Origin: Octopus vulgaris
Lineage: Eukaryota
Assembly: GCA_951406725.2 (NCBI GenBank)
Contig: OX597838.1
Span: forward strand, 24,676,001 to 24,740,000
Direction of reading: 5' to 3'
DNA length: 64,000 bases
Shown here: in pieces, positions 155-28,790 of the stretch
Layout of the letters: the number at the start of each line of letters is the position of its first letter
How positions within the stretch are numbered: position 1 is the stretch's first letter
The notes under the pieces: generated by a model
The model's input: only the letters and a program-made list of their open reading frames with translations
What the model was told of the DNA's origin: nothing
Database searches by the model: none
Translations under genes and position numbers: made by a program

Positions 155-250
155 GAACTACGTCACGGCAACATTACAGTTAACTTCCGTTTCCGACAGT
201 GAGCACCGCTGAAACTAATTTGATTAAAACGTCATCAGTTTGTGTCTTTC
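155..250 (+). promoter_or_regulatory. RPL6 core promoter: CRE-like TACGTCAC (159-166) and ACGTCAT (229-235), tandem ETS/GABP-like ACTTCCG/TTTCCG (183-195), TCT initiator at ~245-252
   Basis: Motifs were read directly. A TCT initiator with ETS sites is the known architecture of animal ribosomal-protein promoters. A YY1-like AAATGGCG lies at 466-473 in intron 1. Confidence 0.6.
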
Positions 251-271
251 TTTTTAGCCACTACCTGGAAT
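246..271 (+). other. RPL6: RPL6 non-coding exon 1 with 5'TOP tract
   Basis: CTTTCTTTTTAGCCACTACCTGGAAT followed by a GTAAGT donor at 272. It begins with C plus a pyrimidine tract. Confidence 0.7.
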
Positions 272-867
272 GTAAGTAAAATGGTTGTTTATATGTCTCC
301 TTATAAATCCACTTTAATCGTGGCTTTTAGCCTTAAATTTATTTTCATCATCAAGAGAAAAGTAACATGAAAGATGTTTATTTCCGTTTCTATGCTTTAT
401 TATTTAGATTACTCATGCAAAATTGATATTATTACATGTTTTTCTCCTCTAACTCAAATTTTCATAAATGGCGATAGATTCATTTGTTAGAAGCACATGA
501 GTTTTTTTTTTTTTTCAAGAATCGTGTCTACATTCATTTACTATTTAGTAACTTTGTTCTTAGGAACATAACACTTTCCACATAATTCCCATGTAATGAA
601 CCTATTTCCACATGGGTTACATTCACGTGTATGTGTGTCTGTCCTCGTTAAATATATTTTCTCCCTCCTCCTTTCCCGTCGTGTCATTTTTCACCGTTCA
701 GAGCTTGATGCCTCTCGTACATATTGTTAAAATGCGGACAGAAACATTTTGTAAGTTTATAAATTTCCAATGGAGGGAGAGCTATTCATTTTATTATTGT
801 AATATCGACAAACTGAAACTGGCCTCGAGCAATATAAGCTATATTAACCAACCGAATGTGGACATAG

Positions 868-957
868 GTATATATACATATATATATATATACATACATA
901 CATATATATATATTTATATACATATATATACATACATATATATATTTATATACATAT

Positions 958-990
<33 letters not shown>

Positions 991-1011
991 CATGCATAAT
1001 ATATATATATA
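868..1011. repeat. (TA)n/(TACA)n compound microsatellite
   Basis: Seen directly; it explains spurious ORFs 612..1112 and 786..1025. Confidence 0.95.
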
Positions 1012-2880
1012 GGACTATAATCCAAATTGTGTTCTCATCTGCATATTCCAGCTATTATACATGTGTAGAACCATATACTTACACAGATATACTCCGCTCG
1101 TGTTGCCTCTAATTATTTTTAGGGGTTAATGTTAAGCTTTTTAGGCCCTAAGGTACGAATATCGTATACATTCATCACTGTCTCCTGTTGTTAGGGCTCC
1201 TTAAAGACTGAGTGGAATTCGAACCAACGCGAGGAGCCTCAGGTGCTCGACATCGTCTTCAAAATTTAAAGACGAGTAAGGCAATGAATAATACAAATGT
1301 GTGGTCTATAAAAATAAACAAGATTAGTTGGTCATGGTTGGAGCGTCGCTCATTTACGATTTTCAGTTCGTCCAGTTTTTAATAATTTGAACGTATACTA
1401 TTTATGTGTTCAGAAATATTGCTTTTTGTTTTTAACCACGGGCATTTTCTATGTAATAGCTGTTTAACACATGGTCAACCATCAATAAGCTGACCCATGA
1501 CCAAAAAAATAAAGCATCCAGACGCGATCACTCCCGGTTTTTTTTTCCTTGAAGCAGTGTCTTTATATATTTATATATATCTAATGTTTTCAAGAGAATA
1601 CGGTGATATTTCAAGGACATTGGCTACTATTTCTCGCCGATAAGGTGAGTACGTTGAGGCCTCTCGTTGGTTTGTTGTAGTAATTTCAAATCGAAGCCAT
1701 GGTAAAGTATTAACTCATCGTGTGGTTAAGAACTTCATAATCGCATGGCTTCGGGATCAGTCGCTTAAACGCATCATTGTGTTTACATTTTGTGCTTCTC
1801 CCAAAACCGATAAGCTACAAACAGTGCCGTTGTGGTCAACAAGTTTGCTTGGGGGCCTTGAAATTAGCGATCCCTTACTTCAAAACACGGGTATGGGTTA
1901 ATGGCAGGAAACACATCCGCTTATAAAACAGGGTCTCCATGACATATTCGTTTAATTTATTCCAGCAAGTAAAACTGAATGAACGAACATTTGTGTTGGT
2001 TTAAATTCAACGCACGTGTGACTAGTGTGTCTCCACAGGATTTCGTGAAACGAGGCAAAACAGTTTACTATGCATTAATGTGGATTCTTTGTTTTAGTTC
2101 ATGGAATCCTGTCTTAGGATGGTGGCGATTTGTAGTTCAAATCTAACCAGAAGACATGTCTCTTTTCTATGACTTTTTACCTATGTTTGAGATTGTTATT
2201 AAATAATGAGCAAGATGTGAACGCTGTAATATGCAGATGTGGCATTTTGTTCAAGTGTCGTCTTCTATATCCCTGGTTTGACCAAAGCTTTGAATGGATT
2301 TGGTAGGCGGAAACTGAAAGAAGCCCATCGTGTATGTATTACTATCTAGTGTCACCATCAATGCATGCAGTGTCCTTTGTTTCCATTCAGTCTTCCATGA
2401 AAACCTGGAAGAAATGTTATCTTGCTCTGAGACAGGTGAGGGTTGGTGACAGGAATGGCATCTTCCTGTGGAAAATTTACCATAACATGCGGGAATGGAA
2501 AGTGGTTGTTAAAACAAGGTTGGCAATTGTAGGTTATGTATTGAGGAGGAACTATCTTAATCGATTATCTGTGTTTGTGGATAATAACAATTATGTTCTG
2601 TTGAAAGCTCTATTCTGTGGGCCTTGGTTCAGGTACCTGATCTGGTTAACCCTTTTGTTATGATATTTCTGTTAAAATATACTTTCTTTCTTATAATTAT
2701 TCTGGAAACAATAATAAAAAAATCTTTGTGAAAATAGCTTTGTCATTATTAAACTGGTGTTTGGAACATAAATTAAGTTTCACTGGTTTTAATTTAGATG
2801 ACTTGAAAACAGAAACTTTGTACCATAATACCAAGGGCAGTTTCAGGAGGGTTGGTATGAAAAGGGTTAACAACACTAGG

Positions 2881-2969
2881 TGTGTGGCTATGATGGAAAT
2901 GTCATGATCTGTCAATCCACTGATTTTATCAAGTTTGATGAGAATTTATTTTGACGCTGAGCACACACA
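2881..2969 (+). ncRNA. Box C/D snoRNA, SNORD110/HBII-55-like, copy 1 (RPL6 intron 1)
   Basis: C box ATGATGG 2890-2896; guide GATCTGTCAATCCA; D' CTGA 2920-2923; C' TGATGA 2936-2941; D CTGA 2957-2960; terminal stem TGTGTGGC/GCACACA. The guide is complementary to the conserved 18S sequence GGAUUGACAGAU. Confidence 0.85.
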
Positions 2970-3991
2970 CATTAATATTTTAGTAAATTTGGCAATTTTT
3001 CTGCCCTTTACGAGTTTTTAACCCTTTAGTATTTAGATTACGCTGTCAAATGTAATGCTTATTTCTTGACGTTGTTTCAAATTAATCAAGGTTTATATCA
3101 TAGCTTTGAGATTTTGATGATGTGGTTGTAGGTATTTATGTTTTTAGAATTACATTGTAGGGTACCTAATGCAGAAAGACACACTATGAGACACATACAC
3201 TCACAGTCATATACAAAATGTAACGTCGTTGTGGTATATAATGCCCTGTTGATAATAGAAAGATTGCAGTGTGGAAGATGTTTGTAAGCCATTGCAGAAC
3301 ACACAAAAACTTAGTTTCACTTCAACATTTAAACTTCATTTGTGACAAAATATTTTTCGGCGCTTTGAAACCATGACCTGTTCACTGACAAAACTTCCTG
3401 CTGCATCTGAGAGAGTTAGTTCATGATTTATGTGTAAATGTGCATGCATGCGTATACACGTACGTATGTAAGTATATAGACGTGTATGTAAATGTATGCA
3501 TTCAAGTTGTATGTATAACTGTTATTCCGTCGATGGTTGTGTGTATATACACACACACACACATTTGTTCTGAGCACATGGTCTCAGATCAAGTCACTTG
3601 CTATGCAAGTACATCGCTGTAAATAAAAAAATTATCTCTATGAAATATATTGTTTTAATCGAAATGAAAATAAAATTTCGTATTGACATTGACCAGCCCT
3701 TACATGCATACAGTGTGTTTAACGTGCATAACACAGAAAGACACACACACACACCGTAAGACATATACACGCTCATACACATACATTCACCGACAGAAAA
3801 TGTGACAGCCTCATCGTTAGAATTAAAAGTTAAAGTATAAAAGTGAAACATAAGATCAAGTCTGTTTTTTTTTTTTGTCTTTTTCAAAGTATACTTGGTT
3901 TATATTTGTCTTAGACTGTGTGATTTGAAAGGGAATTGGTTGCTGTTTGTGATGGTCAAGCATCTACATAGGTGCTCTCTGGTTGGGACTG

Positions 3992-4076
3992 GTGTGTAGC
4001 CATGATGTACTCGAAATCTGTCAATCCACTGAATAAATCAGTTTGACGATAAACCATTTTGACTCTGAGCACACAC
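3992..4076 (+). ncRNA. Box C/D snoRNA, SNORD110-like, copy 2
   Basis: C ATGATGT 4002-4008; guide ATCTGTCAATCCA 4016-4028; D' CTGA 4029-4032; C' TGACGA 4044-4049; D CTGA 4065-4068; stem GTGTGT..GC/GC.ACACAC. Confidence 0.85.
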
Positions 4077-4779
4077 TTTTGGAAAAGGACTATGACCTGT
4101 CTGTTGCCTGGGCTTGGGAATTTGATGTGTGAACGTACTTTCTAAAAATTTTGTGGGGTGCAAAATCAATTTTCACATTCTTCTTGTGTTTAGAAAACAG
4201 CATAAAAATCTCAGCATAAAAAGCTACGAGATAATGCTAAAAGGTTGGCTGAAAGCAATGGATAAATAAGCATTACATTTGACAATAATCTGAATGCTAA
4301 GGAATTAGACATCAAAATCTGTCTTTTGGCACTGAGAATAATTTTAGATTATAATTTATATTCAGTTAGAATGATGGATTAGATTCAGAGTAAAGTATTA
4401 AGTTTGTCTTCCTACATTGTTTCACATTCCTTATTCGAAAATGACAAAACAAATTCAAATGGATATATGTACGATAATGTAATTATTTTGTCCAATTTCA
4501 ATTTACTGCTCTGAAACAGTGTATTGGTTCTGGTGACTATTTCTTTTGCATCATCAGTATCTACCATTATCATCGTCGTTTAACATGCACCTTTCATGCA
4601 GGCATGGGTTGAATGGTTTGACCGGAGACTCGACAGGGTTTTTTTACAGCTGGATGCCCTTCCTAACACCAACCATCCTGCAGAGTGGTGTGATGCAAGT
4701 TAATCGGAAAAGAACTGCCAAGCCTGGTTTCTATGATTTCATTTGTGTTCCCTTATTCTTGGTGGTGGCCACATAATTG

Positions 4780-4867
4780 GTGTGTAACCATGATGCACTG
4801 TCAAGATCTGTCAATCCACTGATTAAATCAACTTGATTGATAAACCCATTTGACACTGAGTTCACAC
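4780..4867 (+). ncRNA. Box C/D snoRNA, SNORD110-like, copy 3
   Basis: C ATGATGC 4790-4796; guide GATCTGTCAATCCA 4805-4818; D' CTGA 4819-4822; C'-like TGATTGA 4834-4840; D CTGA 4856-4859; stem AAC/GTT plus GTG/CAC. Confidence 0.8.
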
Positions 4868-5651
4868 TACTTTGGGCCTTGTCATTGTTGAAAAACTGGC
4901 TCTGATTTAGCTGGGTTCTGTTTAGTCTAGGTCCATATGACCCTTGAGGGTCCACATAAGATTTTGTTGTTAAAGTTTATGTTTGGTTTATTCTACAATA
5001 CACAAAATATTTAATGCAAAAATATAATTGTTTTTAGGTAGCGAATGGTTGTGAGAGTTCTAGCCCTTGAGTAAAATAAAAAATTAATGGGATCCATAGA
5101 TGAAAAAAGAATGAAGAACAACTTGTTTAGAAGACAGGGCAATATCCATAACCTTAGCAGGGGCTTTGGTACGACTGATAATCTGCTTACACATGCATGT
5201 CAACATCTGCAGGAAAGACAGAGAGAAGATTGTTAGTGCAGGGTGGAGGGACTGAAGGTGGTGAGGTGGGGGCAGCTTGTGGTATCGTATTAGGGATAGA
5301 AAAATATGAGGAGACTGCATGTCTGTGAGGCAGTGGCTGGAACTTTTGGTGTGAGATATTTCCGTTGTTGCTACCATTAAACCCAATTCATGCTCACTGC
5401 TATTGGGGTGAAGATGGCTATCTGCAAGTGTGAGTCAGAGTGGCTTTCCACCAAATCTCCCTTGCCATTCTCTGGCACAATACCTCTTCCGTTTTCTCTG
5501 CTGGGACCAGGGGTTGGTCTGAATCAAGAGAGCATAAGAATTTTGTAGTTCACTACACATACAATAACCTACTTCATTGTTGACTGATTCACTGCAAACT
5601 AGTTCTATAATAAGGATATGTAAATATTCACTCCTCCAGAAACTGTTTATT

Positions 5652-5866
5652 TTAGCCCTTTAGCATTTAATCCAACCCAAATGTTCTTCCTGTTTAATGT
5701 TCAAACCAACCGGATCCAACCTCTCACACCTACCATACAATTTCATTCTAAAATATACAAACACACCTTTGAAATCTTGAAAGCTACAAAATGTGTGATT
5801 ACTTCAAAATAATATGAATAAATAAGCAATATATTTGACAAAGAAATCAGAATGCTAAAGGGTTAA
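5652..5866. mobile_element. TTAA-flanked MITE (piggyBac-type ends CCCTTTAGCATT...AATGCTAAAGGG). Other copies at ~6765-6969, 45746-45978, 47451-47680, 48968-49190
   Basis: Terminal inverted repeats with TTAA flanks; the ~210-230 bp body recurs many times in the window. Confidence 0.65.
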
Positions 5867-5985
5867 GAATGGTGATCGGTAGAACAACAGGGAATGTAAT
5901 AACTTGTTTTGCAGTATTCGTTGATGTTCTGGTGTTGGAAACCATTATTACGATGCTTTTCATATTCTCCAACAGTTCATTCATT

Positions 5986-6258
5986 ATGGAAGGAACAGAG
6001 AAAAAGAAGCCTGAGACTAAAGCAGCAGCAGTAGCAAAGAAGGCATCAACCAAGCGCCGGCCTCGTAATCCAGTCATATCTTCAAGTGGTTTGAGGAGGT
6101 TTTCTAGATCTCGGGTGTACAAGAGGAGGAGGATCTTCATCAAGAAGGAACAACCTAAGACAAAAGCAGCTAAGAAGGTCAAACCTGCAAAGTATGTCGT
6201 GAAGCCTATTGGTGGTGAGAAAAATGGTGAAACGAGGAAAGTCCGTGTTAAGCGATTG
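5986..6258 (+). CDS. RPL6: 60S ribosomal protein L6 (eL6), coding exon 1 (exon starts 5976)
   Basis: Acceptor ccaacag|5976, ATG 5986, donor TTG|gtgagt. Peptide contains PRNPVISSSGLRRFSRSRVY and VKPIGGEKNGETRKVRV, the RPL6 N-terminal domain. Confidence 0.95.
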
Positions 6259-7593: not shown

Positions 7594-7734
7594 CCTCGCC
7601 ATATTCCAACACAAGAAGGTAGAAAAAGACAGTCGAAACACAGGAAGCCATTCTCTAAGCATAAGCGTAATCTGCGCAAATCTATTGTTCCTGGAACAGT
7701 GCTTATTCTGCTAGCAGGAAGGCATAAGGGAAAG
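7594..7734 (+). CDS. RPL6: RPL6 coding exon 2
   Basis: ttccag|CCT...AAG|gtatgt; PRHIPTQE...[21 protein letters not shown]; phase 0/0. Confidence 0.97.
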
Positions 7735-9440: not shown

Positions 9441-9489
9441 CGTGTTGTATTCCTGAAGCAGCTTAGCAGTGGTCTGCTCCTTGTGACAG
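9441..9489 (+). CDS. RPL6: RPL6 coding exon 3 (49 nt; not in the ORF track)
   Basis: ctctag|CGT GTT GTA TTC CTG AAG CAG...ACA G|gtaagg = RVVFLKQLSSGLLLVT(G). Confidence 0.97.
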
Positions 9490-9964
9490 GTAAGGGCTTT
9501 TATAGTATTTCTACCATTTTGGCCTTTCTTTTACCATGATATTCCTGCTGTTGTCTCCTGTTTATTTCTATATTGGGCTAGTGTTCAGAGCACAGCAAGG
9601 AGGTTACTCAAATAAATTTACAAAATTTTCATTTTAGAGTTACTCTAATTACATGAATTAAGTAAAATATACAATTTGCCATCCTTTAAAATGCCATTTT
9701 CAATATTTGGGATAAATAATAATAGTCGACAGTTGTGTGCGTATAAAACTGCATGTGTGTGCAAAGAGGCAACAAGAGAGCACGAAATATTATTGGAGTT
9801 TGGGAAAGATATCCTAGTGAAGGATAGCAACAGAATTTTCTCATGTTATATCAAAGATAAGGTGCATTCTAAGGATACATTGTGTATATATACACACACA
9901 CAGGGAATTGTATTTGTGCCCATATCCATTAGCATCCCTCCCTTGTTTGCAATCAGAATGCCAT

Positions 9965-10330
9965 ATGTTTGTTGAGAGGCGTTCTTTGTGCAACATGTAG
10001 TTGAATGTTGTCTTGCAAGAGAATTGGCCTGTCTATAAGGGATTGAAACATCAAACCTTACTGCTAACTCACATGTAGTTTGAGATGTGTCCACTTCCAC
10101 TACAGTTTCCAACTCATCATTATCCACCTTGGTCTCGGGTCTACCACGGGGCTGATTTTCAAGAGTAAAGTCACCAGGCCGGAACTTCTCAGACCATTAA
10201 CGTACAGTGAGCTCATTTGCCACATCTTCGTCAAATACCTCATTGCTGTTTGGGATGCATTGGTTCCATGACAGAACTATTTATAAACAATACGAATTTT
10301 TGATCTATCCATGGAATCACAAAAATTGAT
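9965..10330 (-). mobile_element. Degenerate mariner transposase fragment
   Basis: MDNDELETVVEVDTSQTTCELAVRFDVSIP (mariner HTH linker region) and an LQDN..HVAQ motif; frameshifted. Confidence 0.7.
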
Positions 10331-10504
10331 TTACAAAAGAAAACTCACAATGTAATCAAATACCATGAATTGTATAGCGAAAAGTGATGTAACTCTTCAA
10401 TGCTGTAAAGGAAAGAATTGCCAGGATAGGGGCATAAAGTCTGACATTTCATTCAGAATGACCTGATAATGTAAATGTTCAATTTCCTTCTCTTAAGTTG
10501 AGCT

Positions 10505-10572
10505 CCTGTTAACAAATATAATTCTTTGATCTGTCAATCCTCTGAACTCTCATGTCTATAAATTCTTAGCAA
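10505..10572 (+). ncRNA. Degenerate fourth SNORD110-like copy (RPL6 intron 4)
   Basis: GATCTGTCAATCCT+CTGA at 10528-10545. There is no clean C box, and the D-like position reads CTTA (CTTAGCAA). Confidence 0.4.
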
Positions 10573-10674
10573 GTGAAACCTCATTATCAATTTATTTTCC
10601 CCCAGTCCTTGTGTATACATGTCTCTCTGTGTTTTTTTTTGTGTACTTAATCTTTGCCGATGCGATTGTTTCAG

Positions 10675-10859
10675 GTCCATTTGCAATGAACGGCTGCCCG
10701 CTGCGTCGTGTCAACCAGATCTATGCCATTGCCACCACAGCTAGAGCTAACGTGAGCAAGGTCAAGATACCACCCAGGATAAATGATAACTATTTCAAGA
10801 GGAAGGCCAAGAAGACTAACAAACACAAAGAAGTGGAATTGTTTGAAACAGAGAAGAAG
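10675..10859 (+). CDS. RPL6: RPL6 coding exon 4
   Basis: tttcag|GT CCA TTT...AAG|gtaaat; GPFAMNGCPLRRVNQIYAIAT...DNYFKR. Confidence 0.97.
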
Positions 10860-12184: not shown

Positions 12185-12346
12185 GAGTATACCCTGACAA
12201 AAGAACGTAAAGAGGACCAGTTGGAGGTGGATAAGCAGGTTATTGATTCTATCAAGAGGCATAAGGAGAGGAAACAACTGAAGGGATACTTACAGTCAAT
12301 GTTTGCTTTGAAAAATAAGATGTACCCCCACAAGATGTTATTCTAA
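12185..12346 (+). CDS. RPL6: RPL6 last coding exon
   Basis: tttcag|GAG TAT; EYTLTKERKEDQLEVDKQV...YLQSMFALKNKMYPHKMLF*. The spliced product is 269 aa. Confidence 0.97.
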   Translation, partial: EYTLTKERKEDQLEVDKQVIDSIKRHKERKQLKGYLQSMFALKNKMYPHKMLF

Positions 12347-15405: not shown

Positions 15406-16589
15406 TTACTTTGCTGGCCATTCATTGATGTCTTCAAATAAAAAAGAAGGCAATGAGCAGTCATTGAGATTGGACCATTGCAAAGAAGGAAATACGTCTG
15501 ATATTGGAGTCAATTCACTGTCTTCTATCAATAAAACTTTAACAACTTCTTTTTGGTAAATAACATTATGGCTTTTGCTGTTTTCTCTGGAAGAATAAGC
15601 ATGCTCTTGGCCAATGTTCAGGAGGGTCGAATTAATCCTGGAGCAGTTCTTATGCCGCAGTGTATTGCTGTAGTTAGCAGTGATCTTCCAGTTGTTGGAC
15701 ATCTCTATGTTGCTGTCATCATATAGAGTCTCAACTATTGGTGTTTGAGTAAATATTGTATTCTGGGGTTGGCTAAATTCTTTTGGGGCTGATGAACTTG
15801 TTAATGGATTGTTTTTCTGATTCTCCTCTGACACAAGTTTCTTTACAGTACTTTTATTCTGTTGACTGCTAAGATTGCTCTTACCTGGGACTGAAGTCTG
15901 TTGCCGTGCCAAGAACGGTGGAATTGTCATTTGAGGGAAGTCTTCACTGGAAGCTACAGACAAAGGTGGCAAAGAGTTCTTTGAATTTGGAGCTATAAAT
16001 GAAGAATTATGTTTGTTTGGATTTGACTTGTTCAATTGATTCATTGGTAGATTAACAATATTCTTAAAGACTTTGGCAAATTGGTTTGGCACCTTATCTT
16101 GGAGATTTAGCTGCAAATGCTGCCCTTCTATGGAATGCTGATTCATAACATTTCTGTTAACATTCTCTATTGGCAGTTTATTGTCTTTAATTTCATCTCT
16201 GTTTTCTGTTGTAATCTTAACATGTTTCGAAGTTATACTCATAGAATAAACTGTACTGGCTTTATCAGACTGGTTGTCATCAACATCTACAAGTGTGTCA
16301 TTTGCTGGAGGCTCTATAGTTTTAGAAGACACTGTTTCAGCAGTTTTTGGCCGCTGAGATAAAGGAAGATTCAGTTTTTCCTTAGCAATTCGACAAAATA
16401 CATTGTGTGAGTCAAAGAGGGACTTCAATGTTCTCTGCCGAATTTTAAGAGTGTGGATTTTGCTTAGGAGAATGGCTTTTGATTTTGCAGTGTGGTTCAT
16501 TTGCAAGCCCTGTTGTTTCAACAATTCACAAGTGATTGAATTTGTTCTTTTAATAACTGACAATTTCTCTTGTGATTCTAGTAGAAGGT
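15406..16589 (-). CDS. Uncharacterised SQ-repeat protein, last exon (coiled-coil-like segment, then S/N/Q/K-rich disordered region)
   Basis: 1.2-kb open frame in AT-rich DNA. Acceptor tttctctag|AC at 16589; its phase matches the upstream 97-nt exon. Confidence 0.8.
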
Positions 16590-18181
16590 CTAGAGAAAGA
16601 CAAAATGAAGAATATAAACATAGAGAAAATTTTTTAAAAGATTGAAAATACAAATTCTATTACTAATATTAAATCTCCCAGATGTGAACTTGCCAAGGGA
16701 CATGATTATAATCATTTAACATCTGCTTTCCATGCAAGCATGGGTTGGACGGTTTGACAGGAGCTAGCTAGGCAGAAGACTGCACCAGGCTTTAAGCCTT
16801 TAACAAAGTGTTTTTCAACAGAAACATGGTAAAATGGTAAAGAAAGGGTTAAATTAAAATGAAATTCTGATATTTAGATCAATTTTTGTTTCAAAAACAG
16901 CTAAATAATGCCAGTTATTTTACTGAATTCTTTCAATCTTTTCAAAATTCATTTAATAAAAGGCAATGTAGTTCAATAAAAATGTGGTAGCAAAAGGGTT
17001 AAGTCGTCTTATTTATTAGGAAGTGTCTCAAAATTTTCAAAAATAATGTGCATTATAGAAGTAAAACCAGTTTATTGCAATATGAATTAACAACAAAATC
17101 TAGAATGGAAGCCTAGTTGGGGTCCCCTAATATAGAGTAAGGATCAAGTTAGCTTGGAAAGGAGGGCAATACTGATGACCTTTGCAAGCCTTCAAAGTAT
17201 GATGTGACTAATGACTATTCTGAACATTTGGTCATTGTCCAAAGAAGAAAAATTTTAAGTATGGAGTGGTCAGATTCAGATAGTGACAACAAACGAGCCC
17301 TCTTTATCGTACATTTTTAAGGTACTGTAAAGAGAACTAGGGACAAGGGGATGGTGCTGGATCTACCACACATGTGAGGGAACTAAAAGTCTGATCCAAA
17401 TGCTTGGAATAGGATGGAATCTACAAAAAGGCACCCAAATTGTCAGGTGACCGTAGAGTTACACAAGGGAGATAACCAGTGGTATGTTATTGATAGAATC
17501 CAGCTGAAGTGGATTCTGCTAAAAGTAGCTAGGAGCAGATAGTGGTGGTGGGGGCTAGTATTAAACTGGGGGGGATTTGTTTAGTCTACCCTCGCCCAAG
17601 AAAGATTTTCAACTCACAGGCGCATGTATGGTAAGAAGTTTGCTTCAATCGTTTATCTGAATCAAGGCAACAGCCATGCTGGGGCACCACCTTGAAGAAT
17701 TAGTTAAATGAATCGACCCCAGTATTTTTTCTTTTTAAAGCCTGGTACTTATTCTATCAATCACTTTTGCTGAACCACTAAGTTATGGGGACGTAAACAC
17801 ACAAAGACTCACACATATTCGATGGGCTTCTTTCAGTTTCCATCTGCCAAATCCACTTACAAAGCTCTGGTCAACCCGAGACTATAGTAGAAGGTACTTG
17901 CCCAAGGTGTCACATGTGGGACTGAACCTGGTACCATGTGGTTGGGAAGCAAGCTTCTTACCACACAGCCATGCCTATATTGTTTCATTTAATTTTGAAA
18001 ATAGCCAAGAATTCAGTAAAATAATTTGGTCATTATTTAGCAGCTGCTGTTTGCATTATAAATTCACACAAAATTTTGATAGAAGGTTTTAACTTAGATC
18101 ACAGGACCAACGACAGTCTCAGGTCAGTTAATCTACAGATGCTTCCTTGATAAGACCATATCTAATAATCAACATGTAATA

Positions 18182-18312
18182 TAAGGTTGTCCCAAAAGTT
18201 CGTAAAAACTTTGCAAAAATTTGAATTTTTATGCAATTTTTAATTGTTTGTTTGGGTTTATATTGTTATAGTCAATTTTCGCAAGTGTTTACGAACTTTT
18301 GGGACAACCTAA
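18182..18312. mobile_element. Mariner-type MITE
   Basis: TIRs AGGTTGTCCCAAAAGTTCGTAAA / TTTACGAACTTTTGGGACAACCT with TA flanks. Confidence 0.8.
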
Positions 18313-18336
18313 TAATTAAATTGGTCTTTCACTTAC

Positions 18337-18433
18337 TTGTTAGGTTAGAATAGGATTTAGTTGACAGTTGCTGCTGTATATTCTTGTGAAGTTTTTTAAC
18401 CCCCGTCATACTGGCTCTCGCTGTCTTTGGTTT
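18337..18433 (-). CDS. SQ-repeat protein internal exon (KPKTARASMTGVKKLHKNIQQQLSTKSYSNLT)
   Basis: Acceptor ttcttccaag|, donor |gtaagt, 97 nt. Phase 0 in and phase 1 out joins both neighbouring exons in frame. Confidence 0.7.
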
Positions 18434-19129
18434 CTTGGAAGAAATTCATTAGCAAAATGGTATTAAAAAAAAGTTGATGAGAGGAAAGAATTAATGTAGT
18501 AACTAATTAACAATTAACTGTTGAATTTTTTCTTTTACATATATATAAGATTAGAAATATTTGACAGATGCAATCTTGAATAAAGCAAACCTCTACTTTC
18601 TTGTGAGGAAAAAAATTTATGCTTCATCGTACAAACATATACTTGGTGTTCCATCTGTAATACAGTTGCGTTTGATGTATAACAAGTTTTTGTTATATTT
18701 AAGAATGCAAAAAAACACACCACATCCACTGGCATATATGGTATGCAACTGGTAGGAATTGAACCATTAACTCTGTTAGTTGGCATAGTGATACATGAGC
18801 GATTATGCTACAGCCGTTGATACAAATTATCAGTTATGCTACATAAGGCAGCAAGCTTGAAGAATCGTTACTGTGCCAGACAAACTACTAAGTGGCATTT
18901 CTCCATCTTTATGTTCTGAGTTCAAAGGCTGCCAGGGTCGAATTTGCCTTTTATCCTTTCGGGGTCAATAAAATAAGTACCGGTTGAACTCAATTTTGCC
19001 AAAGCAAAATATTGTCATATTTCAGGTTCAAGCATTGCAACGTGATGGTAAAGGAAACACAATTATGACATTACCACATTTACTGGATATGATCACCTGT
19101 TTCAAATCACAGCCTTAAATCTAGGTGCG

Positions 19130-20100
19130 AATGCTTCACATATGGCACACTGCTTTTCATGCTGAATTCCTGCACATTCCTGGTGCAGTTTTGCCATTAG
19201 AGAATGAAGCATGAGGAGTACTCAAGAACCCCATCTCTAAAATGGACCAAACAGAAAAATCCAATGGGTTGAGATTGGGGTTTTTTGAGGGCCATACATC
19301 ATTGCCTATGAATGATGGAATGTTTTTCTGAATCTAGTGTTGTATTCATTTGGGGCTGTGGGATGGTGTCGAGTCTTGTTGGAGGCCCCAAGGTACACTT
19401 TGAAAGTGCTCGTTTGCCCATAGAAGCAGTTCAGCTTCCAGCTGAGTGATAATTTTAACACCTGAGGGCACAAAAATGTGTGGAAACCTTTCTGTGGCTG
19501 TCACAGCCACCCAAACCATAAATGACAGTGGTTTTTGGTGTCAATTTACGAGTGTATCCTCAATGGGGCCGGATACACTCCAAAGTCAGTTATTCTGGTG
19601 GTTTACTGCATGTTCAATGTCAAATTTCTTTTCACCAGTGAACACCAGGTTGGGCAGCATGCCTTTGGCAATCTGACGCAGGACAAGATGACTTCTCTCC
19701 AGTCTCATGGCCTTATAAACTTGAGCCCATGACAGCAAATCCTCTTGTAGGGGTGGGTCCTGAGATCCTCTTTCAGCACTCAATACATTGATGTTCAGCT
19801 TATTTTTGCTGTGGCAGTCAGTTTTCTAATGGAACAATGAGGGTTTCACCGTATCTTTTCTCTGATACTTTTGATAAGCTGAGGGGTCCACACACTTCTT
19901 TTTGCCATGTCCAGGCTGATCAGTGGTGGAACCAATCTCTTGAAATTTCTTAACAATTTTCCAGACTGTTGTTCAGTTAATTTTAAGCTTTCTGGCTATA
20001 GCTGTATTACATTTGCCTCCTTTGTAGAGGGTTATGATTGTATTTCGGTCTATAGCCATTATCTAATTTATAAATCAGAATTTATTTAGTCTGAAACAAA
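19130..20100 (-). mobile_element. Degenerate Tc1/mariner (maT/DD37D-like) transposase
   Basis: LVFTGEKKFDIEHAVNHQN (first catalytic D region) and WP..NPNLNPLDFSVWSILE (third) are visible across frameshifts. Confidence 0.75.
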
Positions 20101-20189
20101 AAGACACACTAAGCTTTTATAATGATGTATAGTTTTCATATCTTATCACATTTATTGATAGTTATTGAAGCCCAAAACTTTGGTTGGCT

Positions 20190-20760
20190 TAATTTTGGGA
20201 CACCTGGTGAAGCATGACCTTCGAATGTTGGGCCTCACTGAGGCAGTGACAAAAGACATAGACCTCTGACGATATGCTGTGACTGAGAAGACCCGGCAAA
20301 TAAAGTGAGTCCACAGCTGTAACCTACACCAGTGTCGCATAACCAGCTCCCTCAAAAAGTACCTTGGATCGTAGAGCAACATGCCGTGCTTGAGGAGACC
20401 TAGTGAGTCAAGTACATCAAAATCAAATTAAATCACAATCAAATGGAAATTGTAGTTGTGGTCCCCATGCTGGTGGTACATGAAAAGCACCATCTGAACG
20501 TGGTCGATGCTAGTGCTGCATTGACTGGCTCCAGTGCAGGTGACATGTAAAAAGATCGTGGTCAATGCCAGCCCCCTCTGGCCCCTGTGCCAAGGGCACC
20601 CACTACCCTCTCAGAGTGGTTGGCGTTAGGAAGGGCATCCAGCTGTAGAAACACTGCCAGATCAGACTGGAGCCTGGTGCAGCCTCCTGGCTTCCCAGAC
20701 CCCAGTCGAACCGTCCAACCCATGCCAGCATGGAAAACAGACGTTAAACGATGATGATGG
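20190..20760 (+). mobile_element. RTE-type LINE 3' end: ORF tail, 3'UTR and (GAT)n tail. Truncated copies at ~21097-21270(-), 31065-31330(+), 42910-43200(+), 53500-53720(-), 59180-59330(+)
   Basis: LVKHDLRMLGLTEAVTKD..RYAV tail, then the recurrent CCAACCCATGCYAGCATGGAAA..GACGTTAAA(TGA)n end. Confidence 0.7.
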
Positions 20761-22070
20761 TATTCCATCAGTTACAATGGTAAGTGTTGCAGTTGATCTG
20801 ATCCACAGAACAGCTTGCGAATGGTTGAGCACCCCATGAACACATATACTCGTAATGTAGTTATCAGGGAGATTCAGCGAGACAAGGCTGGCCCTTTGAA
20901 TTACAGGAACTACTCAGCTAAGTGGACTCAAGCAACATGACATAAAGAGTCTCGTTCAAGGTCTTAATATACCACTATGAATCAGGTTAAGTACGAGAGC
21001 CAAGATCTTGCTGGTTAGAACATAAAGCAGGTAGAATATGCGGGCCAGTAGGGCCAGTTAAATGCTAAAGAGTTAATAGTGACCACATTATACAATCGTC
21101 GTCGTCATCGTTTAGCGTCCGCTTTCCATGCTAGCATGGGTTGGACGGTTCAACTGGGGTCTGGGAAGCCAGAAGGCTGCACCAGGCCCAGTTTGATCTG
21201 GTAATGTTTCTATGGCTGGATGCCCTTCCTAACGCCAACCACTCCATGAGTGTAGTGGGTGCTTTTTACTGAATAAATTTTATTGCGACATCAGTACTAT
21301 TGGGGTTACCTGTTATCTCACTAAACTAAAACCCCACTGCATGGCACCTAGGGCAAGTGTCTTTTACTAGAGCCCTTCACCAACCAATGCTTTGTAAGTG
21401 AATTTTGTAGGCAGAAGCCCAGTGAAAATCTCTTGTGTATGTATTTACAAGAGGGTGCTAAAAAGTTTGTCTTTAAGGGTATCATAAAAGGCCTGGTTGG
21501 AGGCCCAACATTCTAAGTTCTTTTGCAGGGCTTAGAAAAACTAAAATCATAATTAACTGATCCTCCTGTATTTTCTTTTACCCTTTAAAAATATTTAATG
21601 CCCCGAAACCAGTAGATTTACTCTACAGCAGCCTTTATGCATATTTAGTGCCCTGGAAATAGCATATATACTATATGAGAGGGTGTTGAAAAGTTCCTGA
21701 CTTTAAGGGATCACAAAAGGCCTGGTTGGGGGCCCAACTTTCTGAGTTCTTTTTACATTGGTTTTCTAGTATTAGTTTCAAATTTGGCACAAAGCCAGCA
21801 ATTCCAGAGGAGGGGGTAAGTTGATTACACTGACCCCAGTGCTCAGCTGGTACTTGTTTTAACGATCTTGAAAAGATAACAGGCAAAGTTGACCATAACA
21901 GAATCTGAACTCAGAACACAAGATAGACAAAATGCCGCTATGAATTTGGTCCAGTGTTCTAATGGTTCTACCAGCTTGTTGTTGCTTTTCAGTTCCCTAA
22001 TATTGAACACAATGAATCAAAATCTCTTACAAAAACAATATGAAAATCTTCAATGAAACTTAATACTTAC

Positions 22071-22180
22071 TGTTTGAAAATGCTTTGACTTAGTACTGCG
22101 TATCTGTTGGTTTTTGAAGACAGGTTCTTCGGTGAAGCTATAGGGGTCGAAATCAGGCGGTTCTGTTGAAAGGATGGAAC
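22071..22180 (-). CDS. SQ-repeat protein internal exon (xSILSTEPPDFDPYSFTEEPVFKNQQIRSTKSKHFQT)
   Basis: Acceptor ttttttag|, donor ACA|gtaagt, 110 nt. This frame ends in phase 0, matching the next exon. Confidence 0.65.
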
Positions 22181-22224
22181 CTAAAAAAATTTGAGCAAAA
22201 TAATGATTCTTTTAAAAATTCATA

Positions 22225-22600
22225 GGTGTAGGAGTGACTGTGTGGTAAGTAGTTTGCTTACGAACCACATGGTTCTGGGTTCAGTCCCACTGCATGGCAC
22301 CTTGGGCAAGTGTCTTCTACTATAGCCTCAGGCCGACCAAAGCCTTACGAGTGGATTTGGTAGATGGAAACCGAAAGAAGCCCGTCATATATGTGTATGT
22401 GTGTGTCTGTGTTTGTTACCCCAACATTGCTTGATAACCAATGCTGGTGTGTTTGCGTCCCCATAACTTAGCAGTTCGGCAAAAGAGACCGATAGAATAA
22501 GTACTAGGCTTACAAAGAATAAGTCCTGGAGTTGATTTGCTTGACTTAAGGCGGTACTCCAGCATGGCCACAGTCAAATGATTGAAACAAGTAAAAGAGT
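22225..22600 (+). mobile_element. tRNA-derived SINE family A (most abundant repeat). Other copies at ~26611-26878(-), 26977-27335(+), 31925-32275(-), 38533-38905(+), 40162-40480(+), 48157-48550(+)
   Basis: A box TGGCTGTGTGGT, B box GGTTCAGTCC, internal (TA/TG)n, and 3' GCATGGCCACAGTCAAATGACTGAAACAAGTAAAAG. Confidence 0.85.
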
Positions 22601-22859
22601 ACAATTATTAGAATCAGGGATTTTGAACTAGAAATTGCACTGTAGATACACATATTAATTAAACTGACCCCTTTCTGCTAAAAAAAAAAAACCAGAAACT
22701 CCAAAATACCAGCCTTATACTTACATTTGAAACAATTATTAATATATTCACATAGTTGGTAGATTTGTGGAATCAGTAGAGCATCAAACAAAATACCTTG
22801 TGGCTATTTGTTCTAGCTCTTTATATTCTCACTTCAAATCCCGATGAAGTTAACACACA

Positions 22860-23345
22860 AGGTGTGTACAAAATGTATTCGACATTTGAGCATGAAAAAA
22901 AAACAAATCAATTTTGCATGTTTGATAAATCTTACTTAATCATCTTCAAAATACTCCCTTCTGCCATTTCAGGTAACACTTCTGGGTTGCTATGGAGCTC
23001 TGCTGTTGCTTTTCTCATAATTTCTCCTCACAACTCAAATCGCTTCCCTTTCAGAGTGGTGTTTGGCCTGGAGGAAGAGCCAGAAGTCATATGTGGCTAT
23101 GTAGGGAAGCTGTCCAATGAATAGTGTTGTTCTTGATAAGGAAAGTCAGATTACAGAGTGTGTTCAAAAAGTATCTGACTTTATTTTTTTGCTGACATCC
23201 TATGCATGCATAAACCCTCTGTTTAAATGGAATGCACTGAATCCTGTACTCATTCCCACTCTCCTGGATCGTTACATGACAGTTTTCCAAGACTATTCGC
23301 TGAACCATCTCAATTGGCTCAACAAGTGCTACATAGGTAAACATC
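22860..23345 (-). mobile_element. Degenerate mariner element
   Basis: IEMVQRIVLENCHVTIQE-like HTH segment and LKGKRFE C-terminal motif on the minus strand. Confidence 0.55.
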
Positions 23346-23475
23346 ACAAGGATGGACTAAAAACAGAAGGGGAAGAATTTTTAAAAGGGGTTCCCAAAAG
23401 AACCCCAACCAAACATTGGGGGTCAGATCACCTTGAAGGATAAGTAACCCCCAATCTTACCTTTCTCCAATCAAC

Positions 23476-23900
23476 ATGGCGGACATTAGAGTAGGTCACA
23501 TGTGTGGGACCAGGGATTGTCCTGGAAGCAAGGTCACTTGCTCAATGACCTCAAGTTGCTAGGTTTGGATGTGATAGCTGCCAGTGGGACCAGGGTTTCT
23601 GATACATGCACACTAGCTCCCATTTTTGACAACTCTGAGATCAATGTATCTCTTAGCCATCCTGGAAAGGGAAGCGGGTTGGTAGTGTTGGATAGAAAAG
23701 GCCTGGATCTTGAGGTATGGATGATTCTCCTGGACCCGGATGGTAAGGTGGTGATTTCAGACTAGTTGCTGAGTATGCCCCAACTGGGGTAAGGTAGCCA
23801 GACTTTTCCAGATGTTTGGCGGTTTTCCTTTGGAGGTCTCACTTTTCATTGCTTGTGGGCGATTGGAACGTCATCTTGGATAGGGAGGGCCAGCTGATAT
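23476..23900 (+). mobile_element. Tx1/L1-clade LINE apurinic endonuclease fragment
   Basis: Frameshifted pieces LLNDLKLLGLDVIAASGT, DPDGKVV, YAPT and LLVGDWNVILD (APE GDxN motif). Confidence 0.75.
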
Positions 23901-24019
23901 GAGAGGAATTGTAATAGTTNNNNNNNNNNNNNNNNNNNNNNNNNNNNNNNNNNNNNNNNNNNNNNNNNNNNNNNNNNNNNNNNNNNNNNNNNNNNNNNNN
24001 NNNNNNNNNNNNNNNNNNN

Positions 24020-24545
24020 GCTTGTGACAGGTTTGTATGTGGAAGAGTCACTTGTGACAGACTTGTATCTGGAAGAGTCAACTGTGACAGGTTTGTATCT
24101 GGAAGAGTCAGCTGTGACAGGTTTGTATCTGGAAGAGTCAGCTGTGACAGGTTTGTGTCTGGAAGAGTCAACTGTGACAGGTTTGTATCTGGAAGAGTCA
24201 GCTGTGACAGATTTGTGTCTGGAAGAGTCAGCTGTGATAGTTTTGTGTCTGGAAGAGTCAGCTGTGACAGGTTTGTATCTGGAAGAGTCAGCTGTGACAG
24301 GTTCATATCTGGAAGAGTCAGCTGTGACAGGTTCATATCTGGAAGAGTCAACTGTGACAGGTTTGTATCTGGAAGAGTCATTTGTGACAGGTTTGTATCT
24401 GGAAGAGTCATTTGTGACAGGTTTGTATCTGGAAGAGTCAACTGCGACAAGTTTGTATCTGGAAGAGTTACTTGTGACTGGCATATCTCTGAAAATGCAT
24501 TTTGTGACAGGTTTATGTCTGGAAGTGTCATTTGTGACAGGCTTA
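24020..24545. repeat. 30-bp tandem repeat, at least 18 units (TGTGACAGGTTTGTATCTGGAAGAGTCAGC)
   Basis: TGTGAC recurs every 30 nt from 24024 to 24534; the array is truncated by the assembly gap. Confidence 0.97.
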
Positions 24546-24681
24546 GTTTTGGATCAGGCATCTGTTGGCTTGCATCGTGTACTGTTGTTTTTCCGTTTCT
24601 GATTTCTGTATTCTTATCAATTGTTTCAGCAGGTAAAGTTGGAAATAATATTTCTGAACCAGAAGATGATGCCACATCCAT
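24020..24681 (-). CDS. SQ-repeat protein first coding exon (ATG 24681; exon acceptor at 24711; runs into the N gap)
   Basis: Acceptor ttttacttgacag|; non-repetitive N-terminus MDVASSSGSEILFPTLPAE precedes in-frame repeats. The exon end is hidden by the gap. Confidence 0.65.
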
Positions 24682-25071
24682 TGTGTTAATTCTGTTGGCA
24701 GAGATTTTAAACTGTCAAGTAAAAGAAATAAAGAAACATTTTTTTTTTCATCATTGCTTTCGAAATGATGAGGGGCGTCTTTTAACAAAAAAAACCCAAA
24801 AAAACTTTGTTGATCCTTAAATTCCAGCAATGGACTACACGTGTTACTTCTGTATCATCCTTCCATAAAATGTATTTATGGGGAGAAAAATATTGAAAAA
24901 CATCAACATATGTGAACAAACGAGGAAGGTGGGATGTGCTAGAAACAAGAGCCAAATCTCCGTTAGATCACACACAGTTTCCTTTAAAAATATTTACATT
25001 TTTTCTTTTTTCGTTTTAGGATTTGGCTTGCAAGATTCTTTATGTGAGTTCGTGTGTTGAAGCATATTCTA

Positions 25072-25205
25072 TTGTGTCTGGGGAGAGTCATTCTCTTTTG
25101 GTGCCTTATAATTTAGAAAAATAAAAAAAAAATAAGTGGAAATTTTACCGGTGGGTGTCTTAAATTATAGGGCATCAAAAAACAATGACTCTCCCCAGAC
25201 ACAAC
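25072..25205. mobile_element. Palindromic MITE; related sequence at ~7004-7140 and 28348-28520
   Basis: TTGTGTCTGGGGAGAGTCATT ... AATGACTCTCCCCAGACACAA inverted arms. Confidence 0.65.
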
Positions 25206-26004
25206 AGAATACATTTCTTTTTCTTTATCGAAAAGGCTTATCTCGTTGTTTTTTAGTTTCAAACTATTTTTCATAAAAAGATGTCCAACGCCCATCATTT
25301 GAAAGGCCGTGGTGAAAAGAAAAATTGGGGAAATACCCGTCAAAACGAACAAAATCCAATTTATGTGGGCTTAATGATCCGAAACTCCGCAAAAATGTGT
25401 GTGAAACCCAGAAGTGAACTTTGGACGAGAAACATTTTGAGAGCCATCAGAAGAAACAAACATGGCTCTCAATAAACATATTGACAATAAGTTTAGAGAT
25501 TACAGATATGAAAGAGATAATACTACAGAACTTCAAAATATAGACACTGAACGACAATAAAATAGTATGAACTAAAAATAACAAAACTTAAAAATGTAAT
25601 ACTTAGCAACTTTGTAGCGTGGAGCTTTCCTTGGGTTTACCGTAAAGCATACGACGTCTTTTTCCGTATCCCGAAGAATTCCGGCTTGGCAGACTCCAAC
25701 ACATGGCAAAAAACAAAATCCTTTTTTTCATATTTTCTTCAATGATAAAGCAATATTTTATCAAACGTTTATACTGATAAAAAAAAAAATTGGCTCAAAT
25801 ATTGGAAATAAAAAAAATTCGTTAAATTTCGATATGACCCATTTATTTTCTTATAACGCGACATATGGCGGGGTTTTAATCTTGCTGGAATTAACCTGAA
25901 TTATATTTGTCCAATAAAAAATAAAAATGAGATATCGATATAATTTGTGGCAGTTAATGATTTATGATCGATATTTTTAATGTTATTCTCTTACGGCGGA
26001 AAAC

Positions 26005-26589
26005 GGGGCTAATGCAGTTTCGCACCTCTCCTTGAAAAATGCATTTTTTTTCGAAATAAAAGTTTTTCAGATTCCTACCTTTTAGACGGAGATTACGAAT
26101 ATCAAAAAAAAAATAACCTCCCCCATGCCCCCACCTCTTTAAAATTTTGAACTTTTTCGAAATTTTTTCCGTTTTAGATGACGGAGATTCCGAAAATGCA
26201 AGAAACCACGTTTTCAAAATTTTCAATAAGCATATAGATTATGTGGGCATACAAAACTTTATAACATGAATTATTAAACATTGATGTTTGTTTCTCATAA
26301 AATGGTGTATATTCAATTTACATTAAATTATTTACGATTAATTTAAGGCAAACAAGTAAAAAGCTAATTCTTTTCACTTTAATGTTTTTGTCTGTATTTA
26401 ATTTCCATTTGCATATGATCGTCAATTCGCTACGATCTCTTTAAAGTAAATAATCAAAAATTTAAAGGGAGGGGAGGGCGAAATAAAAAGAAAATTATTT
26501 TTGCATATTCATAATCTCGTAGGAATTCGAAATATTTTTTTCAAAAAAATGCATTTTTCAAGGAGAGGTGCGAAACTGCCATTAGCCCC
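26005..26589. mobile_element. Non-autonomous DNA transposon with ~45-bp TIRs and 8-bp TSD
   Basis: GGGGCTAATGCAGTTTCGCACCTCTCCTTGAAAAATGCATTTT is inverted at the right end. Flanks are CGGAAAAC (25997-26004) and CGGAAAAT (26590-26597). Confidence 0.8.
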
Positions 26590-27704
26590 CGGAAAATCTT
26601 TCACACATCTCTTTTATTCTTTTACTTGTTTCAGTCATTTGACTGTGGCCATGCTGGAGCACCGCCTTTTAGTCGAGTAAATCGACCCCAGGACTTATTC
26701 TTTGTAAACCTAGTACTTATTCTATCGGTCTCTTTTGCCGAACTGCTAGATTACGGGGACGTAAACACACCAGCATCGGTTGTCAAGCGATGTTGGGGGA
26801 CAAACAGACACACACACATACATATATACGACGGAATTTTTTCAGTTTCCGTCTACCAAATCCACTCACAAGGCTTTGGTAGACGGAAACTGAAAGAGGC
26901 CCGTCGTGTGTATATATATATATGTGAAAAGTCTGGCTGCATCCGAAAAAATATATATTATGATATGTATATATATGGAGTGGCTGTGTGGTAAGTAGCT
27001 TGTTTACCAACCACATGGTACCGGGTTCAGTCCCACTGCGTGGCACCTTGGGCAAGTGTCTTCTACTATAGCCTCGGGCCGACCAAAGCCTTGTGAGTGG
27101 ATTTGGTAGACGGAAACTGAAAGAAGCCCGTTGTATATATGTATATATATGTGTGTGTGTGCGTGTATGTTTGTGTTTGTCCCCCTAGCATTGCTTGACA
27201 ACCGATGCTGGTGTGTTTATGTCCCCGTCACTTAGCGGTTCGGCAAAAGAGACCGATAGAATAAGTTGCTCAATTAAAGGCGGTGCTCCAGCATGGCTGC
27301 AGTCAAATGACTGAAACAAGTAAAAGAGTATAAAAGAGTAAGAGATATATATATATATATATATATATAAAAGGGGTAAAGACCCCCTTCGGTCATGAAT
27401 GACCATGGGATTGCACCTAGAAAGTTACCCTCCTAGACACAAGTCCGGGCAAGGTTGTTTATGGAAGACCAGCAGTTGCCCATGCTAACCAGCCTCCCCT
27501 CTCCACGCCACCAGTGTTATCCAAGGGAAAGACAAAGGTCGATACAGCTTGGCACCTGTGACGTCGCAACTCATTTCTACAGCTGAGGTGAACTGGAGCA
27601 ACGTGAAATAAAGTGCCTTGCTCGAGAACACAACACGCAGCCCAGTCCGGGATTCGAGCTCACAACCTCACATTCGTAAGCTCGACGCTCTAACCACTGA
27701 GCCA

Positions 27705-27744
<40 letters not shown>

Positions 27745-28055
27745 CACATATATACATATATATATATGTATATGTATATATTTGTGTGTCTGTGTTTGTC
27801 CCCCCAACATCCTTGACAACAGATGCTGGTGTGTTTACATTCCCGTAACTTAGCAGTTCAGCAATAGAGACCGATAGAATAAGTACTAAGCTTACAAAGA
27901 CCAAGTCCTGGGATTAATTTGCTCGACTAAAAGTCGGTGCTCCAGCATGGCCACAGTCAAATGACTGAAACAAGTAAAAGAATAAAGGAATATATATATA
28001 TCGTTTGTAGAAAACATAAATCCGAAAGAAAAAGCAGACTGTAAGGTGCAGAGCA

Positions 28056-28340
28056 GTATATATTAAAAATGGGGAAGGGCTTGTTTATGGGATTATCTTA
28101 GGTTTCCCACCCATAAGGGGTTTAACTTTATGGTGTATCATTAGACCTCAAAAACCTGTTGGTCCATGACGTCTGAAAAATATGGAGGGAGGAAATGCCT
28201 CACTTCCACCTCCATATTTTTAAGAGGTTATGGGCCAACAGGTTTTTGGGATCTGATGATATGCCATAAAGCTAAACTCTTTATGGATGGGAAACCTAAG
28301 GGAATCCCATAAACTGGCATTCTCCATTTTTAATATATAT
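28056..28340. repeat. Foldback inverted repeat with ~140-bp arms and a 3-nt loop
   Basis: The arms align end to end as reverse complements around CCT at ~28198-28200. Confidence 0.95.
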
Positions 28341-28609
28341 ATGCAGTTGTGTTTGGAGAGAGTCATTTTCTTTTTGTGCCTTATAATTTAACACACTCAC
28401 CAGTAAAATTTCCACTTATTTCCTATTTTTATTTTCCTAAAATTTTCGTTGCGTCTTGCAACCTTTTCAATAGTCTTGACTCATAAGGCACAAAAAGAAA
28501 ATGACTACCCAGACACAACAAACTACGCTTCATCACATGAACTCACATAAGGAATCTTGCAAACCAAATCCCAAAATGAAATATATATATATATATATAT
28601 ATATAAATT

Positions 28610-28790
28610 AGAGAAAACTACTATTATGCAATTCAAACAATGATAGACGTAAATCATAATACTGTTTATTTATTATTATGTACTTTATTGTGATTTAGGT
28701 AAATGCTTTATCATATATTTATTTTTTCTATGTGGTATGATTTACGTCTATCATTGTTTGAATTACATAATAGTGGTTTTTCTCTATATA
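28610..28790. mobile_element. MITE/inverted repeat inserted in (TA)n
   Basis: AGAGAAAACTACTATTATGCAATTCAAACAATGATAGACGTAAATCATA and its reverse complement. Confidence 0.75.

Follow-up and report, generated by a model that had tools for sequence, protein, structure and literature searches.

The question raised by this locus is how several box C/D snoRNAs are freed when they lie together in one intron of an animal gene. In Octopus vulgaris, the 5'-UTR intron of RPL6 carries three paralogous box C/D copies on the sense (+) strand of the window, by which we mean the whole 64,000-nucleotide stretch of contig OX597838.1 that was analysed. In animals, introns that host snoRNAs predominantly hold one each, and intronic clusters are a recognised class (PMC11028025). 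Intronic snoRNAs that sit about 75 nt from the 3' splice site are processed with splicing, and distant ones need extended terminal stems (PMC4150776, PMC5519232). Box D of the octopus copies is separated from the 3' splice site by 3015 nt (copy 1), 1907 nt (copy 2) and 1116 nt (copy 3).

The three units that a sequence-only reading of this DNA had placed here are found with their boxes on the + strand, and a model built from outside orthologs scores all of them (Table 1). The ATGATG core of box C and the CTGA of box D are present in each. Exact occurrences of the 12-nt guide number four: those at 2907, 4016 and 4806 in the units, and another at 10529. That reading had limited the common sequence to the boxes, the guide and a terminal stem, which understates it, as pairwise identity is 72-79% with 61 of 96 alignment columns invariant. 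Its spacing of about 1 kb fits the 1035 nt between copies 1 and 2 but not the 715 nt between copies 2 and 3. The flanks are unrelated, as it had said, with best local scores of 18-24 and repeat insertions at 2997-3164, 4219-4318 and 4558-4696, so that boxes, guide and stems are retained within surroundings that are not. The outer stems of 9-10 bp with one bulge are more stable than 98.1-99.75% of 2000 random intron positions each, and presumably close a kink-turn in each copy. A G-C stem pair in copies 1 and 2 is A-U in copy 3; the covariation that had been read as selection on RNA structure thus comes down to a single compensatory change, which says little about selection when taken alone. 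No other C/D snoRNA with both an rRNA guide and a stem is found in the RPL6 introns or the rest of the window.

Table 1. Positions of the snoRNA copies, the host gene and related features (window numbering unless a contig is named).
Feature	Position	Strand	Remarks
Copy 1 with outer stem	2880-2970	+	predicted mature RNA about 2886-2963
Copy 1 boxes	C 2890-2896, guide 2906-2918, D' 2920-2923, C' 2935-2941, D 2957-2960	+	
Copy 1 outer stem			9 bp, one bulge, -13.1 kcal/mol
Copy 2 with outer stem	3991-4077	+	
Copy 2 boxes	C 4002-4008, guide 4016-4027, D' 4029-4032, C' 4043-4049, D 4065-4068	+	
Copy 2 outer stem			9 bp, -10.5 kcal/mol
Copy 3 with outer stem	4779-4868	+	probable mature ends 4785/4788-4862, from the retrocopy
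Copy 3 boxes	C 4790-4796, guide 4805-4817, D' 4819-4822, D 4856-4859	+	
Copy 3 C'	about 4837-4843	+	degenerate
Copy 3 outer stem			10 bp, -9.5 kcal/mol
Candidate main first exon	245-271	+	pyrimidine-rich start, no ATG, donor GTAAGT at 272; proposed from sequence only
Upstream sequence joined to exon 2	1347-1644	+	5 ATGs; X10 record 9 starts at 1347, X1 record 1 at 1223
Intron holding the three copies	1645-5975	+	GT..AG, 4331 nt, donor AAG/GTGAGT; joint in contigs
RPL6 coding exons	5976-6258 (ATG 5986), 7594-7734, 9441-9489, 10675-10859, 12185-12346	+	269 aa
Guide and D' remnant	10526-10545	+	in intron 9490-10674; 3' splice site about 130 nt downstream
Copy-3 retrocopy	G000:C15:8667553-8667628 (L001 1462-1535)	-	corresponds to 4785-4862

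Copy 1 is recognised as Rfam snoR14 (RF01280) with 41.4 bits against a cut-off of 40. The Rfam check that had been proposed therefore succeeds for copy 1, but copy 2 falls below the cut-off (24.7 bits, E = 0.87) and copy 3 is absent from the matches at E ≤ 1. A genome search with the Rfam SNORD110 model, in which 64 of about 236,000 candidates were scored, does not pick up the copies. The guide of the copies is the snoR14 consensus guide, and Rfam clan CL00076 includes both snoR14 and SNORD110/HBII-55 (RF00610). For an independent measure, a metagenome pattern scan gave at least 120 stretches sharing the anatomy, which cluster to 53; with L072 and L129 left out as likely chance matches, 51 went into a sequence-only model made without the copies of the window. 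It matches all three near full length (copy 2 at 36.8, copy 1 at 32.3 and copy 3 at 28.2 bits, with E from 5 × 10−10 to 3 × 10−7). By these sequence matches, the three copies belong to the pan-eukaryotic snoR14/SNORD110 clan CL00076, sharing with it the guide before D' and the box spacing, and the SNORD110-like assignment made from the sequence was right. The ortholog set also bears on the last base of box C, in which all three copies deviate, as had been pointed out. The deviation is not special: of 78 distinct orthologs, 11 have a seventh base other than A (10 of the 53 that are left once they are clustered), always T or C and never G, and the feature consequently carries little weight.

Five of the at least 120 outside loci (L058, L123, L050, L070 and L092) have two guide copies each, which suggests that local duplication of the snoR14/SNORD110 family recurs in other eukaryotes. 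In L058 and L123, the two guide copies are 213-229 nt apart.

Complementarity of the guides to the 18S sequence of this same genome (2643 nt) extends over 14 nt in copy 1, 12 nt in copy 2 and 13 nt in copy 3, the antisense element in each ending 1 nt before D'. The D'+5 rule leads to SSU U1795 for all three, which is the first U of the matching site, as had been claimed. SNORD110 is listed as the guide of human 18S Um1288 in PMC8677024. Judged from the common guide rather than from an alignment to human 18S numbering, U1795 is likely its equivalent, and one and the same 18S uridine is the predicted site of 2'-O-methylation for the three copies. The 18S rRNA gene itself, at C20:23978688-23981330 (L005), is far longer at 2643 nt than the Rfam model of 1831 positions.

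The host was named as RPL6 from the sequence, and the 269-aa product of five coding exons bears this out, with Pfam L6e_N and L6e (PF03868, PF01159) matched in 3 of the 4 exons scanned. To see the intron borders, we use four sequencing runs, all consisting of contigs and only guessed to be RNA, aligned over 1030-6250. Among the 15 joints listed, out of 47 and besides 754 loose ends, a single one has GT..AG borders, running from 1644 to 5976 and skipping all three copies; the remaining listed joints link repeat fragments. The GT..AG joint is present in X1 and X10, which are 2 of the 4 runs and come from two studies with two organism labels. In these contigs, the copies thus lie within one intron of the spliced host transcript. 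In X1, however, depth at the joint is 5.4 versus 16,000-30,000 in the exon 2 bins, which indicates that the main RPL6 first exon is probably upstream of 1030. The candidate for it in Table 1 would give an intron of 5704 nt (272-5975). The earlier statement of one 5.7-kb intron therefore holds in that the copies share one intron either way, but the length seen in the contigs is 4331 nt and the 5.7 kb comes from inspection of the sequence. What is joined to exon 2 from 1223 or 1347 to 1644, in front of a perfect donor at 1645, could be a minor alternative exon with upstream ATGs, an alternative start, a cassette exon of 87 nt with its acceptor at 1557, or an intermediate of stepwise splicing.

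Upstream of copy 1 in the same intron, a single-copy hairpin at 2035-2114 (+) folds into about 30 bp, G-U pairs being numerous among them, around a loop of 11 nt; its fold z-score is -5.4 on the sense strand versus -0.6 on the other. It looks like a microRNA precursor in its predicted fold, has no Rfam match, and is absent from four supplement text files of PMC9699675, whose sequence tables are possibly elsewhere.

Drosophila likewise has a triplicated C/D guide for an 18S uridine, Me18S-U1356a/b/c in Uhg8, which we take to be the fly ortholog of the RPL6 copies. Each of the fly copies is mono-intronic in a non-coding host according to the rows of the PMC11028025 supplement that list them, whereas the octopus copies occupy one RPL6 intron. 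The fly arrangement, along with the predominance of one snoRNA per intron in animals stated in the same source, recommends a reading in which non-coding exons or recursive sites split the octopus intron in a rare transcript, leaving one copy to each part. Such isoforms would be unstable because of upstream ATGs and nonsense-mediated decay. There is an extra donor in use at 1645 that resembles an AG/GT ratchet point, and acceptor-like sites are at 4193, 4557 and 4601. However, the 15 of 47 joints listed include no GT..AG joint between copies, donor-like sites in the spacers reach at most 5 of 7 consensus positions versus 5-7 for the donors of the gene itself, AG/GTR is absent between copies 2 and 3, and the AG/GT at 3132 is inside a repeat. 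Contigs are weak on expression levels, and rare isoforms can drop out of them. On balance, we regard hidden splicing as quite unlikely.

The sequence-only reading also held that the host differs from NOP56, in which human and macaque SNORD110 is single and mono-intronic (rows in the PMC11028025 supplement). The NOP56-like gene of this genome is at about C18:30.087-30.107 Mb, and neither the 9-nt guide core nor the ortholog model finds a paralog in the 40 kb around it. The same two probes find none in the 80 kb around two other intron-containing Nop-domain genes, so a paralog near any of the three loci is rejected over 120 kb. We take these loci to be NOP56, NOP58 and PRPF31 on the strength of protein motifs and a NOP5NT match. 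With no guide around the NOP56-like gene and three copies in RPL6, the host does differ from that of vertebrates. No RPL6 match is seen in any of the at least 120 outside loci, 40 of which have only about 300 nt of flank, and RPL6 is absent as a host for the snoR14/SNORD110 family from the table searched in the PMC11028025 supplement. Two observations were made along the way. An Rfam SNORD83 match (36.9 bits, cut-off 35) at C1:151248651-151248723 (-), L147 8651-8723, has the orientation of the NOP58-like gene and lies within it or shortly after its end. At C23:4136090-4136458 (-), a long uninterrupted Nop-domain match with two stops is probably a processed pseudogene.

Next is whether the units could be a mobile element, the dispersal of which the sequence-only reading had named as fatal to its interpretation. 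Searching the 2.8-Gb genome for a 17-mer of guide plus D' gives 4 sites, of which three are those of the RPL6 copies and the other is on contig C15; the reversed control gives 0. A looser 16-nt pattern has 11 other matches outside the window, limited to guide and D', several being in SINE-like sequence. With 3 local copies, 1 retrocopy and looser matches confined to the guide region, we reject a transposon or dispersed repeat, and the feared dispersal is not found genome-wide.

The fourth guide match of the window lies in a later RPL6 intron, at a distance from the 3' splice site that is the usual place for an intronic C/D snoRNA. This remnant has a 16-nt match to 18S and aligns with the ortholog model at positions 21-62 only, having no usable box C, box D or stem, and a fold z-score of 0.14. 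It is probably a decayed paralog and possibly a decayed ancestral copy; a chance match related to a SINE is less likely but possible.

The match on C15 is a recent retrocopy that differs from copy 3 at one base and is identical to it at 77 of 78. It begins 2-5 nt before box C, 3 nt of that being common to the target-site duplication, and ends 3 nt after box D, thus lacking the outer helix. On its 3' side are 11 A and then a SINE-like repeat, of which the window holds several relatives, and a target-site duplication of 15 nt encloses the whole. The A-run and the SINE-like repeat could have been joined to it within one duplication by a template switch, or else by two insertions at the same site. 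On the 51-ortholog model the retrocopy scores 26.7 bits.

Type-1 snoRNA retroposons copy the matured RNA, begin at the mature 5' end, and have 0-9 extra 3' bases, an A-tail and a target-site duplication of 7-19 bp (Weber 2006, PMC1687206). The C15 retrocopy has every one of these features: mature 5' end, extra 3' bases, A-tail and a duplication of the same length class. It differs from them in that the single duplication noted also encloses a SINE-like repeat, and in that its parent is a member of an invertebrate intronic cluster. Because its divergence from copy 3 is about 1% as compared with 21-28% between the copies, the retrocopy postdates the triplication. Since its ends are the predicted mature ends, clustered copy 3 was probably released as a monomer. 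That a finished molecule of copy 3 was cut out is likely, on the basis of one retrocopy event, which is the sole evidence here on expression, and for copy 3 only, and the 5' end could be a chance truncation.

Genome searches find no retrocopies of copies 1 or 2, and the existence of one for copy 3 only, together with the decayed fourth remnant in the same gene, could be taken to mean that a single copy, most likely copy 3, is productively expressed while the others are slowly decaying duplicates. We consider this very improbable, as at 21-28% divergence none of the three has lost its guide, its stem, the core of box C or the D' and D boxes, and copy 3 is outscored on the independent model by copies 1 and 2, which also have better C' boxes.

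The reading that we favor, to which we give about an even chance of being correct, is that each copy assembles independently by way of its stem, that a cut in the spacers and trimming follow, and that the products are three guides for one 18S uridine. The copies would be co-transcribed with RPL6 and would have arisen by duplication in place once the host had changed, in whichever direction, between the vertebrate type and RPL6. Each would then assemble its protein complex through the outer stem independently of splicing, would be separated from its neighbors by a cut in the spacers, and would be trimmed by exonucleases. Splicing-independent assembly is what the D boxes at 1116-3015 nt from the 3' splice site suggest, far from the usual distance of about 75 nt. 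If copy 3 has a trimmed 5' end, then copies 1 and 2 either had been cut off or were unprotected, that is, unassembled. The spacer cut is an inference, neither a nuclease nor a cut signal having been identified: a hairpin scan has no standout RNase III-like hairpin in the spacer between copies 2 and 3, and the top-ranking hairpins of the other spacer consist of microsatellite or repeat sequence.

The same scan result suits another route, in which exonucleases trim the debranched intron back as far as the copies that carry core proteins. A monomer would emerge only if one copy had assembled; otherwise the products would be sno-lncRNAs of 0.9-2 kb with snoRNA ends, and the extra copies would offset poor assembly far from the 3' splice site. 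Known enzymes suffice for this, and it accounts equally well for the copy-3 retrocopy. It is documented for two snoRNAs in one mammalian intron, which yield snoRNA-ended long RNAs and not monomers (mammalian examples in PMC11028025). The sno-lncRNAs of the Prader-Willi locus, SLERT and LNC-SNO49AB likewise have two or more snoRNAs per intron, but the product there is a long RNA capped by snoRNPs, whereas at RPL6 the retrocopy indicates a monomer of the last copy. Contigs at depth 3-9 cross the octopus copies with no raised segment outside repeats, so that depth between the copies is not above that in the rest of the intron, with the reservation that contigs inform poorly on levels. If assembly is efficient, the monomer yield would also drop with each added copy. 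We hold trimming alone to be doubtful, though worth serious consideration. Of the three mechanisms to which the sequence-only reading had restricted the locus (hidden exons, recursive splicing or endonucleolytic release), the first two find no support, and this exonuclease-only route had been missed.

The drop in yield matters more at a second locus. Between the last two RPL34 coding exons found, at C5:95705622-95715670, there are nine C/D copies with no exact match elsewhere, having flanking duplexes of -7.8 to -13.6 kcal/mol in 8 of 9 and a 10-nt match to the rDNA unit. With nine protected copies, few monomers would presumably result from trimming alone. Rfam has no match in the part of the array that was scanned. 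At least one further fragment is near C5 95712176. The RPL6 triple and the nine-copy RPL34 intron suggest a recurring arrangement in this genome.

For comparison with other animals, we turn to the annotation in the PMC11028025 supplement, where the fly rows of parts 7-9 of 91 include many H/ACA snoRNAs and 6 C/D rows marked intronic_cluster. The C/D clusters annotated there include Or-CD11a/b/c in RpL28 and Me28S-U2134a/b in RpL13A, each with several paralogs in one ribosomal-protein intron, as in RPL6. The fly clusters are mostly H/ACA in those rows, and the RPL6 cluster is C/D, its copies being spaced by 0.7-1 kb and lying at 1.1-3.0 kb from the 3' splice site. The supplement has at least 108 animal C/D cluster rows, and the 30 of them listed are from macaque and mouse, being largely imprinted arrays. 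The DmSnR60 set is one per intron (PMC1821038). No paper on cephalopod snoRNA clusters was found in the literature searched, mostly outside subscription journals. The surprise first expressed at three snoRNAs per intron was overstated, given the annotated fly ribosomal-protein C/D triple and the nine-copy RPL34 intron of this same genome.

A bolder proposal is that this lineage abandoned the one-per-intron, splicing-coupled rule for C/D snoRNAs genome-wide, with the guides freed by a dedicated endonucleolytic step that would be new to animals. We think that unlikely, and likewise, taken jointly with it, that the guides were amplified in place within long repeat-filled introns and are assembled through short outer stems. 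On that proposal, the cleavage would possibly be of Microprocessor type (compare the microRNA-like hairpin upstream of copy 1), and the retrocopy would be a fossil of the product.

The intronic cluster in RPL6 is real, and its snoRNA family, target and layout are all of known kinds. The exonuclease-only model, from which long RNAs with snoRNA ends are expected, does not settle how several snoRNAs leave one animal intron. Because the copies are distinguishable by sequence, lie 0.7-1 kb apart and are in a highly expressed gene, release is cheap to test at this locus, where the retrocopy already speaks for a copy-3 monomer whose ends are defined.
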